Position numbers and translations under genes: made by a program. Shown piece by piece: positions 9,938 through 40,960 of a stretch of DNA of 64,000 nucleotides. Position 1 is the stretch's first letter. The number at the start of each line of letters is the position of its first letter. Origin of the DNA: Octopus vulgaris. Taxonomy: Eukaryota. The notes under the pieces are model-generated. The model was not told the origin of the DNA. It made no database searches and saw only the letters and a program-made list of their open reading frames with translations. The stretch lies in contig OX597816.1 of the NCBI GenBank assembly GCA_951406725.2, positions 80,228,001-80,292,000 on the forward strand, in the 5' to 3' direction.

Positions 9938-10375
9938 CACACATACATACATAAACACACACACATACATACATACATACATACACACATACATACATTC
10001 ACACATACATACATACATACACACATACATACATACATACATACATACATACATACATACATACATACACACACATACATACATACATACACACATACAT
10101 ACATACATACATACAACATACATGCATACATACATGCATGCATACATACATACATACATACATACATACATACATACATACATACATACATACATACATA
10201 CACATACATACATACATACATACATACATGCATACATACATGCACACACATACATACATACATACATACACACATATATACATACATACATACATACAAC
10301 ATACATGCATACATACATGCATACATACATACATACATACATACATACATACATACATACATACATACATACATA
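9903..10375. repeat. Long (CATA)n/(CA)n microsatellite
   Basis: About 470 bp; source of several spurious ORFs. Confidence 0.95.
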
Positions 10376-10567
10376 GCTCACTCGATCAAATCGACGTTGT
10401 TTGAACAGGTGCACCGTGTGTCACGCGTCAGTTGTCGAAGTGACCGCAGAAAAACGTGAGATGAGGTGCTTTGCTCAAAAACACTACTCACTACCCGGTC
10501 TAGGAATTGAAACCACAATCTCGTGATCGTGAGTCCAACACCCTAACCACTAGGTCATGCGCCCTCA
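10376..10567 (-). mobile_element. tRNA-derived SINE family D
   Basis: Reverse complement gagggcgcatgacctagtggttagggtgttggactcacg...ggtttcaattcctagaccggg has A and B boxes; head related to family C, body different. Confidence 0.75.
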
Positions 10568-10575
10568 TACATACA

Positions 10576-10606
<31 letters not shown>

Positions 10607-11335
10607 GTATGTATTTACACACACACACACATATATAGATATAAATCATGAGTAAAAAGGATTAATACATTGGGACACACATACATGCACACACACACTC
10701 ACGTGTATATATTTTGCAAGAAATTTGGTTACTATTTCTAGCAGATATGAGAGCGCTTAGAGGCTTCCGCACAGGCTCAATCACATTATGAGATATGAGA
10801 AGATAATAAATGATGTTTTGAAATACCTTACAAAAGCTTACCGCAGATATAATAAAGAGATTTATTTATTTCGAAACTGGAAATTGTAAAATAAGAACAG
10901 AAAATAAACAAACTACATTTTTTTTTCTCAATGTTCAATTCTATTTTATAATCATATCCCTCATGTTTATCGTATTATAGTGACGATGGATCACGGCGAC
11001 CATGATGAGTTTCGTTATGATCATAAAGTCCATTACAATAATGATGGCAGCGCAATGTTGATGATGATGACGACGATAACTACGTTGACGACAATAATGA
11101 TGGCAGTGATGAACATGATGAGGATGATGATGAAATGAAATGAAAATGATCTCAATTATTATCTAACAATTAATAAACTTGATTAAGCTAGAGAGAAAGA
11201 GAAAGAAACAGCAGCCTAGAGAGACTGACAGACAGACAAAGGAAGCGAGAGGAAAAGTTAGAAAGAAAAAGCCAAGAATAAAATTTATAAATATGAGCGG
11301 TATTTGTGTCAGTACTGAAAGTAGGATTATATAGA

Positions 11336-11398
<63 letters not shown>

Positions 11399-11553
11399 GT
11401 GCGTGCGTGTGTGTAAACCTTTTAAAGAATAGTGAATCTCGAAGCATACGTAAAGCTATAAATGTGAAGATTTTGTGAAGATTTTAAGCTTTATTAATAT
11501 GATATACACACAAATACACATATTTATGTATGCATGTGTATATAAATTTCAAC

Positions 11554-11644
<91 letters not shown>

Positions 11645-12429
11645 ACACACACAGACAGTTGAAATTTATAGAAAAATAAAAGATAAAGACGGGTGTAGAA
11701 ACAGTAAACACGTGTATTGGTTTGACACCCAGGGAGAAAAGGAAGGAATAAGAGGAAATAGGGAGAGAGCGAAAAAGAAACGTGTAGAGTTCAGCGGTCC
11801 AACATGGCGAATGATTGAAAAAATAGATTCTGAATGAAAGGGAGAGAATAATGGTGGTGATAAGGTGGTGATACCAGCAAGTTAAGGTGCAAAAGCGTAT
11901 GTGTGTAAGTGTCTATGTGTGAATGGGAACGAGTAAGTTTGACGTGTGTGTCTGCGTGTGTAACGTGTGTGTGTGCTGCCTTCTGTGTAACAGTTGATGC
12001 CTGCTTTTTCACATGGTATGCACATGTGTGTGTGTGTGTTTGTGTGCCTGTGACCAAATAGTGTGCATGTGTATAGCATATGTATGTGGGTGGAAGTTAT
12101 CTTTGTCTGTGCGTGTTGTGAATGCATGTATATATAGCCTGTGTTAAGGTATTATGTGCTTGTGTGAGTGTAGTAGTATATATTGTCTGTGTTCAGGTAT
12201 TATCATCTTGTGTGGTGTGAGGTGTTTGTACTGAGTTAAGCAGTGTGTGTGTGGCTGCTCATATAGTGGTATGTGTGGCGACGCTATTGAAGAATGTATG
12301 TGGGTGTGTGGATGATAATGTGTGAGGTGGGTGCTGAGAAGTGGTTAGATCTAGTGTGTGTGGAATGGGAATATGTAGAGTGTGTGGGGGGAGGTGTAAT
12401 GGTGTGTGGAGTAAGCAGTGTGTATGAGT

Positions 12430-12790
12430 GTGTCAACAGGAAGAGGTCAAACGCCTACATCTACTTTGGGCAGGTTCCTCAGGCTTTTTGGGAGAATATT
12501 AAAAAGCTGTAGGTCCCTGAAACCCAGGCTGTTGCAGTAACTGGTCTTGAAGCGTGATGGCGTTTCTGGGATCTTTGATACGACGCAGTGTCGTCCCGTT
12601 CTGGCATTGGTGTAGCTTCCAATGCCAAAATTTGGCACAGTTCCTTCCAGGATCTTCCAGATGTATATTGCTCCACACCTCTTCTGCCTTTTCTCCAAGG
12701 AGTAGAGTCTTAGCTATTTCAGCCTTTCCCTGTAGCTGAGCAGTTGCAAAGAAACGATCTTTTCTGGATTGCTTCAAGATCCGCTGTTAA
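12430..12790 (-). mobile_element. CR1-like LINE 3' fragment
   Basis: LEAIQKR...YRERLK.LRLYSLEKRQKR..IYIWKILEGTVPNFGI...LFNILPKSLRNL C-terminal motifs. Confidence 0.75.
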
Positions 12791-12801
12791 ATTCGCTGTC
12801 A

Positions 12802-13479
12802 ATTTTCATTTGTCTTGCTTATTTTTACACTTTGGTTTTTTGCTGAATTTTTTTTTGAGAACATATTCTTCGTGGAAAATGGCGATTTTGACGTCTACAT
12901 CTAGCATACAGGCTGTCCACTTTTAGTGGTCAGTCCTCTAAATTTTCTATGTAAAAAAATTTTTAATCTTTGGATTTTTAAAAAAAATATGCTAGGCCAC
13001 TGGTTTTAATTGATTAATATCAATTTCTACCCTTATTTAATTTTAAATAAAAATGTTCTCTAGCCGGTAAATTCACTGCTGTAGTTTATTACCTGCAGAA
13101 TAATTTCCGATCTCAGCGCGCCAAGGTGAAGGCATTTGAAGATACACATAAATGTAATTTGTAGAACTTTATACATAATGGATTTCGTTCGAGCGTTCTG
13201 TATCTATTTTTGGAAATTGTGTTTTGTAAACGACAGGCTTTGCTGATGGTTTTGCAGATGTTTACGTATCCATATACGTAAATATTAACAAGTGAAACTA
13301 ATTAGTACATAGGTAATCGCTTTTTATTTCGTATATTTTCATTTGTCTTGCTTATTTTTACATTTTGTTTTTTGCTGAATTTTTTTCTTGAGAACACATT
13401 CTTCGTGGAAAATGGCGATTTTGACGTCTATATCTTGCATATAGACTGTCCACTTTTAGTGGTTGATCCTCTAAATTTT
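12802..13479 (+). mobile_element. Retrozyme-like / non-autonomous PLE unit with ~145-bp direct terminal repeats (period ~533 nt)
   Basis: 12802-12946 repeated at 13335-13479; interior homologous to the reverse complement of ~14620-14860; carries a hammerhead motif. Confidence 0.7.
13237..13313 (+). ncRNA. Degenerate type I hammerhead ribozyme
   Basis: gctttg CTGATGG ...tttacgtat/atacgtaaa hairpin... GAAA ctaattag TA catagg; palindromic stem III; A9 changed to G. Confidence 0.55.
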
Positions 13480-13574
13480 GTGTGTATATATATATATATA
13501 TTAACAGTAATTGTATGACAACAAAAGAATGAATGAGACCTCGATATTAAGTAAACAGGAATTCATCTGTAATG

Positions 13575-13779
13575 TAATATGTGACAATTATTCGGTTACC
13601 ATAATAAAAGTCCGAGTTTCGGATGTCGGCGTGGAAATCTGCTTCCGCATTTCGTCAGTTATTAAGACAATAAAAAAAATTGATTGTCTTATTAACTGAC
13701 GCGATGCCGGAGCAGATTTTCGCCCCGACACCCCTAACTTGGAGTTTTATTATGGCAACCGAATAATTCTGACATATTA
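13575..13779. repeat. Inverted repeat (~97-bp arms), each arm holding a hammerhead-like motif
   Basis: 13575-13671 pairs with 13683-13779; same family as 33850-33944. Confidence 0.85.
13603..13663 (-). ncRNA. Type I hammerhead motif (partly decayed)
   Basis: aataa CTGACGA aatgcgg...ccgacatcc GAAA ctcggac TT ttatt; stem I aataa/ttatt. Confidence 0.6.
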
Positions 13780-13784
13780 TATTA

Positions 13785-13838
<54 letters not shown>

Positions 13839-13920
13839 CCTATATATATATACATATATATACAAGAATGAGATAAAAATCCAAGTCTGTGAAAGATTTT
13901 AGATCATTTATAAATAGAAA

Positions 13921-13968
13921 GTCTTGCAGCTGTTTCCGGGATATTCTATATATCCCTTCATCGGAGAC
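13921..13968 (-). ncRNA. Type I hammerhead motif (variant or decayed)
   Basis: gtct CCGATGA agggatat..atatcccg GAAA cagctg CA agac; stems I and II intact, two core changes. Confidence 0.6.
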
Positions 13969-14185
13969 GGTGTGAGGAAATGGTTAAGTAATAGTTATTT
14001 TAGATAAGATATGAAGTAGAGAGAGAAGTGGAGGAATGAAAATAGATGTGAGATATGCAGGGATATTGCATCTGTAGAACATTAATGAGGCAGAATGGTA
14101 TATATATATATAAGATTCTAGTACCTTGTAAGTTCCAGTAGTATTTAAAATTGGTCATTCCATGTATAGAGTTTTTATATATATT

Positions 14186-14262
<77 letters not shown>

Positions 14263-14264
14263 GT

Positions 14265-15062
14265 ATGTATATTTAAACACTATGTGGTTAGCCATATGCT
14301 TGAAGTAGATCACCTGCGATCAAACTACAAAGAAAAGAATGTTCTCCAGAGAAAAATTCAGAGGACACCAGAACAATATGCGGGCAAGACAGATGAAAAT
14401 TATATAAAAAACAAGAATTAATCGCAGACCTAGGTTTCGCCTATTAACGAATGAATCACTTACGTAATCGTAATCGTCCATAGGGCTCGTCAGTGCGATC
14501 GTTCCACAGGTAATATAATTTGTAATTATAATTTGTATAATTTGTAAAACTAACCACCAGTTTTCCGTATAAAAACAGACACGTGCTTAGTTTCACCGAT
14601 TCCATTGGGGTTAATTTCAAATGTCTGAGTTCTGGCGCGCTAAAATTCCGGAAACAAAATCTGCAGTAAATAATTTACTGCAGTTAATGCTGCCTATTAG
14701 AGAACATATTTATTTTAGCATTTAGATAATGAGGGAGATAAATTGAATATTAATTTAATTAATATCAATTTAAAACCAGTAGCTTAGCATGCAAAAATCT
14801 GAAGAATCAGAGAAAATTCTAATACATGTGTATATTTAAAGAGCTAAACAACCACTATGTGGTCAGCCATATGCTAGAAGTAGATAACCTTCGATCAAAC
14901 TACAAAGAAAAGAATGTTCTCTAGAGAAAAATTCAGCGGACACCAGAACAATATGCAGGCAAGACAGATGAAAATTATATAAAAAACAAGAATTAATCGC
15001 ACACCTAGGTTTCGCCTATTAACGAATGAATCACTTACGTAATCGTAATCGTCCGTAGGGCT
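14265..15062 (-). mobile_element. Retrozyme-like / non-autonomous PLE unit, ~1.4 tandem copies of a 575-nt monomer
   Basis: 14265-14486 repeated at ~14826-15062; non-coding; flanked by (AT)n; contains an intact hammerhead. Confidence 0.8.
14421..14499 (-). ncRNA. Type I hammerhead ribozyme (canonical core)
   Basis: atcgca CTGACGA gccctat[extended stem II with gattac-GTAA-gtgatt hairpin]ataggc GAAA cctagg TC tgcgat; perfect 6-bp stem I, palindromic stem III, GUC site. Confidence 0.85.
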
Positions 15063-15082
15063 ATATATATATATAATTATGA

Positions 15083-15525
15083 GCAATAATTCTCTGAACG
15101 AGGTATAAACAGTAGCTGCACGACAATGTGAAGTATATTTGTCACTTAAATGAGGCTAACTTCACATTGTCGTACAGCTACTGTTCATACCTCGTTCAGA
15201 AATTAATTATGGCTTGTTTACACTTTTTCGAGATCAGTGACTATTCGTCACTGGAAAAAGGATATATGTATTTGCATTGGGAGCCCGCCGCATCGAAGAC
15301 CGGTGATTGTCGTGCACTGACGACTGGTAAATATTCAGAAACCCGGGTCTGTGCGTATCACGTCAGGTCGAAAATGAGAAGGATGGCTTCCCTGTGCAAA
15401 TGCTGATAGGGCACAGAAAGTGTTTCAATACCCAGCTCGAGAAGATGTTCTCCTGGGGCAACAAGCTACAGTAGCATCCACCCTTAGTGGTTAGCCACAT
15501 TTAAGTGGCAAATATACTTCACATT
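15083..15525 (+). mobile_element. Retrozyme-like unit (357-nt period) preceded by an inverted partial copy
   Basis: acttcacatt at 15159 and 15516; ~15085-15160 is the reverse complement of the junction-spanning sequence (15489-15525 joined to 15169-15205); contains a hammerhead. Confidence 0.75.
15311..15355 (+). ncRNA. Type I hammerhead ribozyme (canonical core)
   Basis: cgtgca CTGACGA ctggtaaatattca GAAA cccggg TC tgtgcg; 6-bp stem I with two GU pairs, palindromic stem III, GUC site; stem II weak. Confidence 0.75.
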
Positions 15526-15841
15526 ATATAGTTATGTATATATATGTATATATATATATATATACGTATAAATATATTTATAAACATATATAAATGCATA
15601 TATATATATAAATATATATACGTATACGTACATACATGCGTATATATATCTATATATCTATCTATATATATATATATGTGTGCACATTTACGTTGTCATA
15701 ATACGTACCCGCACTACATGTTCGTCGTACATCTACGTAAAATTGTTATATAACCAAATATAAATATATATGAATATATATGTATATATATGTATGTATA
15801 TATGTATATATATATATATATACATATAAATAGATGGATAA

Positions 15842-15884
<43 letters not shown>

Positions 15885-16070
15885 TACACAGTCTCACTCA
15901 AACATACACATATAGTGGTATGCGTGTATGTATGTATATGTGCACATATATATAAATATACATTTACACATAATTACATTCATACAAATATATATAAGTA
16001 CACAGACACCATACATACGCATGTATATATGTATGTATATATATATGTATGTACATATGTATGTACGTAA

Positions 16071-16136
<66 letters not shown>

Positions 16137-16415
16137 ATATTTATATATACGTGAAGTATGCATACGTGTAGGTTTATGTAAGCATATCGATTTATCTAAT
16201 TTACAACATTGAAAATATTGAGAATTGTTGAAAGTACAACGTTTGAAATGAAAATTATAGAATATTTCCCACAAAATTCTTTTCAAATCGAGAAAATCTC
16301 ACAAAAGAACAGCATTTGTGGAAAACCATATAATTGAACTTAATGTTTTATTCCAAGCAAATACACGTGCAAAAAGTGCATGAACACTCCCCGATGTAGA
16401 AGTGACAACGCATAC

Positions 16416-16461
<46 letters not shown>

Positions 16462-16503
16462 ATGGAATAAATATATACAGTTTTAAATGAATTCTCACAC
16501 ACT

Positions 16504-16535
<32 letters not shown>

Positions 16536-17049
16536 AATATATATGTACGTACATATATATATATATATATACACGCAGACATATATGTATGCATACTCAT
16601 TCATAGAGACTTACATGTATGCATACATAGAAGGATGTGTGTGTATAGGTATATACATATATCTAAGGATACAGTATATATTTATGTTGATATATAAATA
16701 TATAAATACATACATGCGTACAAATACGCATATATATATAGAAATATATATAATCGTATATACAACAGGCTAAGGCAAAATACATTTATCTCATTGTATA
16801 TTTGAGATTCTTCCATTTCCGTTCCACTTTTCACATCGTCGTTCTCATAGCTCTAATTTAATATATTTCTATTTTTATGGAGCACTTTTCTGATAAATGC
16901 CCCGTTCTTGGATGAATTAAGATGTAGCATGCGAAGCCGATGTGAGTTTATCTATGAATCAATCTATCTATCTCCATGTATCAATACATTTCGTACCGCT
17001 GAATATTTGTGTGTGCGTCGGTGTGAGTGGATCTATGCATATTCACACA

Positions 17050-17080
<31 letters not shown>

Positions 17081-17867
17081 GCACACATACACACACAGAC
17101 AGACACACACACACACATGTATATATATATATATACACATATATGTACATACATACATTTATAAATACATGTATTATTGTATTTATTTCTATACGGATAC
17201 ACTACATGCACAAACACATCACTGCCCGTGCTCACACGCATATATTTATATAGGTATATAAGTATATACATTGAGAGAGTGAGAGAGAAATGATCGCGAA
17301 TGACAAGGATATGGTACTGGGTTACTTCCATTCACAAGTATATCTCTTATTTTAATCAATCACACGACGAAGAGAAAGGAGAGACGATGAGGAAGAATAC
17401 TCCGGTAAACCGAAGAAACATAAAATAGAGAGATATTTGGGAAACGGCCAGAACCTATGTATTGATATACATACATACAAACATATATACATACCGAAAA
17501 ACTCGCACTTTACATAGACAACATATAAGTGAAACAGCAAAATATGGGAGGGTTTTCTCAGGTTTAAAATGTGACAATGATGAAGCTTTGTATCTTTATT
17601 AGAAGCTAGTTCCTTTTGCAGATGGTAAATTTAAGTAATTAAAAACAGAAGAGGACCTATAAATATATTACCCATGCACACACACACAAATACATACATA
17701 CGTACACAGATGCATACATATACACATACATACACACATACATTCATACATACAAACACATACATACACACACATACATACACACATACAGACGAACATA
17801 CATACACACATATGCATACACGCATACACATACATTTACACATACGTACATAATACATATGCATACA

Positions 17868-19448
17868 TGATGGTTGCTAACTCGATTTCGAGTTAGAGCT
17901 ATTTCCTGATTTCTTTATTCCTTAGAATATCATCGATAAGCTGAACGAATATGGCTTTTGAGGCCTGTCAAAGACCTGCAAGGTCTTTTGACAATTAGTG
18001 CAAGAAAACTCAGTGACTGTATAGGTAACAGCTCCATGAACTTTACTATGTCTTTTCAAGCCACTTTCTGATCCGCACATTTTATGACAGTATGCGTTCA
18101 AAATCATCTGTCCATGAATGTGCGGTTGTGCAATGTGTGAATTCATATGGCACTTCAGCTCAGACAAATTTTTCCAAATTTGTCACATGTAAAATCATCA
18201 CGTTTATTAATGCTTGTTAGAACATCATCCCTGTCACTTTTTCTCATCTTCCTTTTGATCTTTGCATGCTCCATTCTCTTCTTTTCAAATTCATTTTTGC
18301 CTTCAAACACAACTTTTTCCCATTTTTCTCAGCAATGCGCTAAATCTTCCCAGTTGTCAATCGGAACATTTATCTCATTCAGTCCCGACTTCAATCTTTG
18401 TACCTCATCTTTGGTTTGTGGGACGGACGCTTACCTGTCACCAATTCTCCGTAAAAAAGTTGTTTAGGCATTCTGTTGTTTATCATTCTGACAACTGCAA
18501 TAGTAAAGCTTCAATACTGAAGCATTTACCTTTTTCAAGAACCTTATCGTCACTCACAAACATAAACATTTTCCAGCTGATCCTCAAAATCCTTCTGAGA
18601 CATTGTTGATGAAAACGTTCCATAAGTTTTAAGTGCTTACGATACACAGTCCAGGTTTTGCAAGCACACGATAAAGAGGTTAAGATACATGTATATCTTA
18701 ATCTTTGTCACAGTGGAGATACCGTGTCTAGACGACAGGCGGTCTTCCAGTTTGCCAAAAGCAAAACTGAGTTTCTAAATACGTAGTGATACTTCATCAT
18801 CAAGATTCGCTGATGTATTTAGTGTGCTCCCTAAGTAAACAAACTTAGAAACCTTCCATACACGATGATACCAGGTCCTATGTATGGCATTCCTGGTGCT
18901 GCCTGAAACGCCAACAGTTTTGGTTAAATTTATGGCTAAGCCAAGTGCTTCAGAAGCCATAAATTGCATTCATAAGAATTTGCATGTCCTCCTCAGTATG
19001 AGTGACAATATCACAATCATCTGCATAGAGAAGGTCTCTAATAAGAGTTGAGGACGACTTTGACTTAGTTGTCAGTCTTTTGATGTTAAACATTTTTCCT
19101 GTTATGCGATATCTGATATATATGCCTTTGATAGCCAATTGAAAAACTATAGTAAAACAGAGGGTGAAGAGAGTGGGTGCTAGTATGTCACCTTGTTTTA
19201 CTCCATTCATGACAGAGATAGGCCCCGAGAGCTTTCCACCAATGTTGATCCTTACTTCCATGCCATCATGAAACTGATTCAGAATAATGAGAAACATTAC
19301 CGGGCATCCAAGTCTCTCCCAAGATATTCCACAAGGTAGTTCTATTGACAGTCAAAAGCCTTAGTAAGATCACTGAATACCTGATAAAGTCCTATTTGCT
19401 GTTCCACACACTTTTCCTGTAACTGACATGCAGAGAAGATCATGTAAC
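17868..19448 (-). mobile_element. RTE-clade LINE, 3' part (RT C-terminus, C2H2-like fingers, 3' stem-loop)
   Basis: GVKQGDILAPTLF, LLYADDCD, FVYLGSTL, CHKMCGSESGLKRHSKVH; hairpin ctaactcg-attt-cgagttag at 17877-17896 before a (TATG)n tail. Confidence 0.9.
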
Positions 19449-27169: not shown

Positions 27170-27442
27170 CCTCAGTTTTGGGGAAAGGGATTAAGTCAAT
27201 TACATCGACTCCAGTGCGTAACTGGAACTTATTTAATCGACCCGGAAAGGATGAAAGGACAGACAAACGGATTAAGTCGATTATATTGACCCCAATGCGT
27301 AACTGGTTCTTATTTAATCGACCCCGAAAGGATGAAAGGCAAAGTCGACCTCAGCGGAATTTGAACACAGAGCGTAACGGCAGACGAAATACGGTTATGC
27401 ATTTCGCCCGGCGTGCTAGCGATTTTGCCAGCTCGCCGCCTT
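27170..27442 (-). mobile_element. SINE family B with partial internal tandem duplication
   Basis: Core ggattaagtc...atttaatcgaccc..aaaggatgaaagg present twice. Confidence 0.85.
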
Positions 27443-33834: not shown

Positions 33835-33849
33835 CTGTAAATGTATCTG

Positions 33850-34152
33850 TAATTATAATATGTGACAATTATTCAGTAGCCATGATAAAACTCCGAATTT
33901 CGGATGTCGGGTTGGAAACCCACGCCGGCATCTCTTCAGTTATCGGGCCATCCCAAAAAATTCTATGATCAGGTGCTCATGGTAGCGAGCTACCGGGAAG
34001 GAAGACGGATCAAATCTGAAACCAGCACGTATCAAGCATTAAGAATCCACAAAAACAATGAAACAATCAAAGAAAACTATATCTTGATGTGAGCCATCTC
34101 GGGAATACTGAAAGATTTTTCTTGTATGAAGCGTATATAACACACACACACA

Positions 34153-40562: not shown

Positions 40563-40960
40563 ATATTTCTTTATTGCCCACAGAGGGTTAAACATAGAGG
40601 GGACAAACAAGGACAAACAAGGAGGTTAAGACGATTACATCAACCCCAGTGCGTAACAGGTACTTATTTAATCGATCTCAAAAGGATGAAAGGCAAAGTC
40701 GACCTCGGCGGAATTTGAACTCAGAACGTAGTGGCAGACGAAATACCTATTTCTTTACTACCCACAAGGGGCTAAACACAGAGAGGACAAACAAGGACAG
40801 ACAAACGGATTAAGTCGATTATATCGACCCCAATGCGTAACTGGTACTTAATTTATCGACCCCGAAAGGATGAAAGGCAAAGTTGACCTCGGCGGAATTT
40901 GAACTCAGAATGTAGTGGCAGACGAAATACCGCTAAGCATTTCGCCCAGCGTGCTAAAGA
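40563..40960 (-). mobile_element. SINE family B tandem dimer (long tail)
   Basis: Two bodies joined at gacgaaatacctatttc (~40737-40753). Confidence 0.9.

Follow-up and report, generated by a model that had tools for sequence, protein, structure and literature searches.

A TA-microsatellite patch of the Octopus vulgaris genome holds copies of five dispersed retroelement families bearing hammerhead motifs

Five retroelement copies, belonging to five dispersed repeat families (A to E), lie adjacent to one another in one TA-microsatellite patch of the Octopus vulgaris genome. These are very probably five separate copies, of which B and C are stumps of Hydra-type Penelope-like elements (PLEs) and A, D and E are hammerhead units likely copied by PLE enzymes. 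The locus is a new example of known biology, Hydra-type PLE ends together with retrozyme-like units. The window analyzed here comprised 64 kb (contig coordinates 80228001-80292000) of a genome of 2.8 Gb in 227 contigs; positions are given in window coordinates. For each unit, 44-64 matching places were found and 40 candidates were scored, and alignments were built from 20 loci of each family. The copies studied were the best-scoring matches, taken without random sampling.

Results

Layout of the locus

The units and neighboring features are listed in Table 1. The preliminary description had proposed five adjacent units parted mostly by (TA) and (CA) tracts, and this arrangement was recovered with one exception, the 5' side of unit A, which adjoins a LINE fragment and lacks a TA tract. 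Its proposal that several families had inserted repeatedly at one TA microsatellite is supported by the family structure and the TA-linked 3' ends presented below. Tracts of (TA)n and (CA)n are plentiful in the window, and those between and after the units are likely the target tracts of the units. In the window copy of unit A a direct repeat with a spacing of 533 was observed. The copies at the locus are likely inert fossils of differing ages.

Table 1. Positions and strands of the units, hammerhead motifs and other features of the window.
Feature	Position	Strand	Description
LINE reverse transcriptase frame, 3' fragment	12440-12801	-	immediately 5' of unit A; presumably CR1-like
Unit A	12802..13486	+	retrozyme-like, non-coding; 3' part 12802-12953, then full ~534 bp monomer; ends in (TA)n
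Hammerhead of A	13238..13312	+	damaged: A9G, U.U break in stem I; predicted cut after 13307
Unit B, 3'-anchored arm	13500..13678	-	Hydra-type PLE 3' end; damaged hammerhead ~13595-13670
Unit B, inverted arm	13680..13784	+	dead hammerhead 13691+; inverted repeat of 105 nt, 83% complementary
Unit C	13862..14170	-	3' end of second Hydra-type PLE; hammerhead 13921-13968
Unit D	14275..15062	-	retrozyme-like; partial tandem of 1.38 units, 575 bp period in window copy; related to A
Hammerhead of D	14421..14500	-	intact canonical type I: 7-bp stem I, G10.1-C11.1, palindromic stem III, UC cut site
Second hammerhead of D	14996..15062	-	5'-truncated, begins just past CUGACGA; lacks stem I 5' strand; G at position 17
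Unit E, short inverted arm	15080..15160	-	3'-anchored
Unit E	15159..15525	+	retrozyme-like, 357 bp monomer; stops at first of the family's two regular 3' end points
Hammerhead of E	15311..15353	+	core, stem I and palindromic stem III intact; stem II weakened
(TA)n/(CA)n spacers	13487..15560 (~13487-13501, 13786-13861, 14171-14274, 15062-15076, 15525 onward)		between and after units
Frame of 155 residues	19564-20028	+	presumably resembles LINE endonuclease
Repeat pieces	27184-27339 and 40564-40931		tandem pieces of one common repeat, periods 81 and 184; presumably SINE-like
Further B copy	33845-33944	-	5'-truncated; (TA)n end; broken stem III
Frame of 306 residues	57454-58371	+	presumably resembles mariner-type transposase

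Hammerhead motifs and family consensuses

Seven hammerhead motifs had been reported from the locus, two of them (13691 and 14996) as decayed or partial. Remnants of all seven were found at the reported positions and are not attributable to chance, but only those at 14421(-) and 15311(+) give a full type I fit, and the number of broken motifs had to be corrected to five, four damaged and one cut short. As read from the sequence, the 13603(-) hammerhead of unit B is damaged by G10.1A and a C.C break in stem III, and the 13691(+) hammerhead of its inverted arm is dead, with A9C and GAAA changed to CUAA. The 13921(-) hammerhead of unit C has the core of its family, CCGAUGA (U4C), and a U16.1C change particular to the window copy.

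A relaxed descriptor was composed post hoc, with the consensuses already known (C[UC]GANGA, stem II of at least 3 bp, GAAA, palindromic stem III, UH, stem I of at least 4 bp). It matched twice in the whole 64 kb, with cores at 14493(-) and 15317(+), whereas none of 2000 dinucleotide shuffles of 12802-15525 gave any match, so that the expected excess of motifs over shuffled sequence was borne out. The consensuses of all five families fit the descriptor, against 0-1 of 2000 shuffles for each. They thereby keep the conserved core and stems, as anticipated, and uphold the earlier reading of the motifs as minimal type I hammerheads with palindromic stem III, of the PLE and retrozyme type. Among individual copies, 59 of 162 fit (A 15/21, B 12/53, C 14/46, D 9/20, E 9/22). 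The cores failed to line up in a plain multiple alignment of six window motifs, which was set aside.

The core CUGANGA/GAAA/NUH is present in consensuses A, B, D and E; that of C is CCGAUGA, and its U4C core was found also in another protein-coding PLE family. Consensus A combines CUGAUGA..GAAA with a 10-nt palindromic stem III and U.U at the base of stem II, where D and B have G10.1-C11.1, C has A.G and E has C.A. Stem III is a palindrome of 8-10 nt, predicted to form an intermolecular duplex of -9.0 to -14.9 kcal/mol, compared with 0 as a hairpin. In a subfamily of D (copies L012, L014, L016, L018 and L019), stem III begins with one additional base. Several features tell against the hammerhead reading: A, C and E are without a direct G10.1-C11.1 pair, C has U4C, and the minimum-energy fold of the isolated A, B, C and E motifs differs from the hammerhead fold. 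Judged by core and stems, the five consensuses are type I hammerheads with predicted ribozyme activity. Within-family changes, judged by eye, resemble neutral decay, mostly of CpG type, and thus provide no test of stem covariation. Between A and D, 28 of 100 changes are two-sided, but in a fold itself fitted to those two sequences, and they were given no weight as evidence.

A chance origin of the motifs, as matches in hairpin-rich repeats, might be suggested by the lack of hammerhead families among the 150 of 175 Rfam matches listed for 10000-18500, by the lack of any hammerhead at gathering score in six loci, and by the fit of only two of the seven window motifs to the descriptor. The comparison of descriptor matches with shuffles refutes such an origin, which retains practically no probability; the five consensuses moreover fit with different stem sequences in each, and a like motif occurs near the 3' end of protein-coding PLEs.

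The motifs agree with the minimal PLE hammerheads of Cervera and de la Pena 2014 (PMC4209133), as far as the available text describes them, in being of type I, in a palindromic stem III that implies folding as dimers, in an extra nucleotide after position 9, in the many families per genome and in opposite-strand pairs 100-700 bp apart. They differ in a longer stem III, of 8-10 nt; in A, C and E, stem II also has an additional base on each side.

Among the descriptor matches in the fetched loci, 30 different stem III/cut-site strings were seen, more than 20 of them from outside A-E. Two descriptor matches in 120 kb of unselected DNA would extrapolate, very loosely, to a genome-wide total of intact motifs in the thousands to tens of thousands.

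Units B and C are ends of Hydra-type PLEs

Sequences 5' of B copies contained a reverse transcriptase (RT), a CxCX5C linker and a GIY-YIG endonuclease at L183, L185, L189 and L198, and the same order was found 5' of C copies at L163, L165 and L221. The frames of both parents are interrupted by stops and shifts. In their translations no cysteine pair lies between GIY and YIG, and CxxC, E, N and CxH come next. These features are shared with Hydra-clade PLEs as described in the available text of Craig et al. 2021 (PMC8557442), which have an RT and then a C-terminal GIY-YIG, a CxCX5C linker, no CCHH pair, CxxC and CxH around a conserved E and N, a (TA)n target, a 3' type I hammerhead with palindromic stem III, and truncated and inverted copies. 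B and C were assigned to the Hydra clade because their protein motifs match that description, and by these predicted motifs both are 5'-truncated 3' stumps of protein-coding PLEs. A reading of the linker as Neptune-type was dropped in favor of Hydra on the CxCX5C spacing and the absent CCHH pair. The preliminary description had called the families non-autonomous, which holds for the non-coding A, D and E but fails for B and C (two of five units, three of seven motifs), whose parents encode RT and GIY-YIG.

The supplement of PMC8557442 includes Hydra-1_Obim from Octopus bimaculoides, with a (TA)n preference and a hammerhead. The B parent matches Hydra-1_Obim at ~49 of 70 residues by eye, but its hammerhead differs; both B and C depart from that element in their hammerhead sequences and in long, low-complexity 3' UTRs, and C also in its U4C core. 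Hydra hammerheads in the same supplement include ctgatgat..tgaa, the U.U form seen in A, and the odd palindrome actc-g-gagt, seen in B, and U.U is common at the stem II base. A (TA)3 sequence was found at the 3' end of 18 of 20 B copies and 13 of 20 C copies, against a background of 7%.

N-terminal RWK and DKT motifs were not seen in the 12 loci scanned, all copies fetched being 5'-truncated. Pfam gave no family for two PLE frames, and no homologs were retrieved with the C endonuclease piece as query. The Atlas gave unnamed clusters in which 27-94% of members carried PF26215 HTH_animal, and in one of them 48% carried GIY-YIG, which is a lead only. A third PLE family (L126-L130, L133) is young, with many near-identical copies and RT-GIY-YIG frames of 335-557 residues. 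It lacks a cysteine linker, has a CCGAAGA hammerhead core and ends in (TA)n ~50 nt beyond the cut site.

Units A, D and E are retrozyme-like

Units A, D and E form closed head-to-tail units with periods of 534, 551 and 357 bp, and the closed monomer of A is seen at 20 loci. Family sequence upstream of the monomer is the monomer's own 3' part, in direct or inverted orientation. A is related to D (local score 101 versus a shuffle maximum of 31), and local alignment with shuffles gave no significant similarity of E to A or D. A CCAC..GTGG hairpin and the ~174-nt spacing are common to all three, which is no more than a lead; the L182/L201 family does not have this hairpin. No PLE protein match was found in the window, and none of 55 PLE loci (35 + 20) contained a protein-coding element whose 3' end resembles that of A, D or E. 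The predicted circular folds of the monomers have z values of -8.4, -5.9 and -6.7 for A, D and E (40 shuffles for each). As linear molecules they give -10.3, -6.6 and -5.8, compared with -1.3, -0.3 and -1.2 for the 3' ends of B, C and the third PLE family (40 shuffles each; the compared lengths differ, 265-551 nt, which influences z).

Two complete hammerheads in direct register were found at none of 59 A, D and E loci, the longest copy comprising 1.57 units. A genome-wide search for two motifs, covering E, located two E stem III motifs one period apart at three places, two of them with both cores, against 490 single 12-mer matches. Copy numbers are at least 17 for D by exact 16-mers (control 0) and at least 490 for E by exact 12-mers (control 38). 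At L009, an inverted piece extends the template ~190 nt further 5', across a whole second hammerhead.

Metazoan non-LTR retrozymes and their circles, with units of 150-450 bp, were described by Cervera and de la Pena 2020 (PMC7229834), and vertebrate retrozymes were tied to PLE pLTRs by Li, Clavereau and Pollet 2026 (10.64898/2026.07.22.740005), in whose work one of nine tested dimers cleaved and 'active' retrozymes are tandem arrays with two or more complete hammerheads. Units A, D and E resemble retrozymes, as depicted in the available text of both papers, in being short, non-coding, low in GC and head-to-tail, with one type I hammerhead and predicted self-pairing. Unlike the dimers to multimers of retrozymes, they are dispersed insertions of 0.5-1.6 units with fixed (TA)n 3' ends and PLE-style inversions. 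The hammerheads they carry belong to the PLE/Hydra type, A and D at 534-551 bp exceed the range of PMC7229834, and circles are here predicted. A, D and E thus fit retrozymes as short, non-coding, strongly self-paired hammerhead units, yet at the 59 loci do not form the tandem arrays by which active retrozymes are recognized.

At least three further small partial-tandem hammerhead families with (TA)n ends were noticed, with periods of ~400, 473 and 420 bp (L182, L201, L064, L042/L196). The repeat at L182 (+, ~370-950) is 98.9% identical; its start coincides with its own predicted cut site, and its end lies 172 nt beyond the downstream one. A single E copy at L235 (~969-1534) comprises 1.6 units with two decayed hammerheads and has its 3' end at the second cut site.

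Insertion signature

In all five families the 3' ends are fixed and the 5' ends are variable. Measured from the predicted cut site, 18 of 20 B copies end at +109-111 nt and all 20 C copies at +60-66. Units A, D and E have two end points each, at +169-179 (11/20) and +267-283 (8/20) in A, +169-182 (12/19) and +282-296 (6/19) in D, and +173-176 (7/20) and +217-230 (13/20) in E, the first being about +173-176 in all three. Since these 3' ends lie off the ribozyme cut, priming would have been internal or on uncut RNA. A 3' end at (TA)3 was observed in 69 of 99 copies, versus 7% of random 20-nt windows; in E it was seen in only 9 of 20 copies, and the second end point often lies in ATT-type sequence. 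An inverted 5' piece is carried by 32 of 99 copies. The 5' end lies beyond the upstream cut site in 4 of 59 A, D and E copies, by ~58 nt at most. One target duplication is clear (15 bp, L091) and there are three weaker candidates. Judging from the copies aligned, the insertion pattern is that described for PLEs, optional 3' tail included (available text of PMC8557442). A Helitron or DNA-transposon origin was excluded by the fixed 3' end, the variable 5' truncation and the lack of terminal repeats.

Clustering and age

Insertions of other A-E families were counted 18 times in 264 kb near copies (4 within 200 bp), versus three times in 181 kb of unselected DNA, and intact motifs of other families 18 times in 309 kb around 94 copies, versus twice in the 181 kb. 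Clustering is thus enriched about four- to fivefold, a figure that is loose because the background counts are small. The neighbor count left out L017 and the five window loci; A-versus-D matches below 80% identity were treated as cross-matches and discarded, at the cost of one A-like neighbor at L019. At the other 94 loci at most two of the families occur together. Five units in 2.7 kb are therefore extreme, and a simple TA preference may not be the full explanation. PLEs tend to insert beside older copies, according to the available text of PMC6765202.

The window copies diverge from their consensuses by 0.026 (D), 0.043 (A), 0.055 (C), 0.058 (E) and 0.083 (B), and the duplicated arms within a copy by 0.024 (D) to 0.097 (B). 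On the scale in the available text of PMC13282606, where a divergence of 0.09 equals about 25 million years, the unit ages span roughly 7-25 million years. The units likely inserted individually and at different times, given their unequal divergence and the finding of each family apart elsewhere. The suggestion that the locus represents a candidate retrozyme 'system' did not survive these observations, which point to a pile-up. That the five units form one functional or co-mobilized ribozyme cassette is very improbable. Such a cassette might be read from the fact that no other sampled locus holds five families within 3 kb; against it, each family occurs alone at 19-20 other loci, divergence varies about threefold among units, the orientations alternate, and five of the seven motifs are broken.

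Discussion

In the mechanism proposed here, drawn from established PLE biology, a GIY-YIG endonuclease would nick a (TA)n tract and reverse transcriptase would prime there. Every copy would land next to TA repeats, leaving TA repeats for the next insertion. For A, D and E, a transcript longer than one unit would be cut by its hammerheads, dimerized through the palindromic stem III, and the cut monomer would be closed into a self-paired circle. Reverse transcription would then initiate within the unit, at an A/T-rich site ~174 nt beyond the cut or at a second site 45-110 nt further on, and run 0.5-1.6 times round the circle. We place the probability of this circle model for A, D and E a little above even. 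Both of its parts face contrary evidence: two-hammerhead arrays are missing from all 59 loci and E dimers are rare, unlike in classic retrozyme arrays, and copying by Hydra-type PLEs is weakened by the lack of a protein-coding parent among the 55 PLE loci and by the listing for Octopus of Naiad PLEs, which also target (TA)n.

Units A, D and E could instead be linear mini-PLEs: short elements derived by deletion, whose template was a linear transcript made up in part of tandem units. The hammerhead would then do no more than trim the 5' end, if it acted at all, and no circle would be formed. This is plausible, though we think it probably not the case. It would account for copies that never contain two full direct units (1.57 at most), for the rarity of dimers, and for an upstream cut site passed in only four of 59 copies, by no more than ~58 nt; a related small family also starts at its own cut site (L182). 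It is harder to reconcile with the strong self-pairing that separates A, D and E from PLE 3' UTRs, with the inverted piece of L009 spanning a second whole hammerhead, and with two alternative 3' ends that flank the monomer junction. Mobilization of A, D and E by another enzyme, from Naiad PLEs or a LINE, appears improbable. Naiads with a (TA)n preference are recorded for Octopus species in the supplement of PMC8557442, A, D and E show no 3'-end homology to the Hydra-type families examined, and E ends at (TA)3 in fewer than half of its copies, often with an ATT-type second end. Naiads, however, lack canonical hammerheads and have long been inactive in cephalopods (available text of PMC8557442), the A hammerhead has the Hydra-type form, and the head-to-head 3'-anchored inversions resemble those of PLEs and not of LINEs.

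The literature search turned up no paper describing cephalopod retrozymes or families A, D and E. The Octopus vulgaris repeat paper (PMC13282606) counts Penelope-like families in its main text, where the words 'ribozyme' and 'hammerhead' do not occur. The sequences of A, D and E may already be catalogued in repeat libraries.

The locus itself is a transposon graveyard, and its value lies in the features shared within one genome, where Hydra-type PLE ends and non-coding hammerhead units have the same target, insertion signature and ribozyme style. That PLEs are the motor of animal retrozymes is a proposal based on co-occurrence and on vertebrate pLTR similarity. The 3' ends are precise, one young PLE family (L126-L130) has long open frames, and hammerhead variants are numerous, which makes this genome an easy testbed for mobilization and dimer cleavage. 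We suggest, tentatively and as an unlikely rather than a likely reading, that the genome hosts a collection of small circles with hammerheads (from A, D, E and no fewer than three further families) riding Hydra-clade PLE enzymes, reverse transcribed from a fixed internal site 172-176 nt past the cut in four families, and spreading as single target-primed insertions instead of satellite arrays. If true, this would be the most direct genomic record so far of PLEs mobilizing animal retrozymes from circular RNA, and a ready test system.
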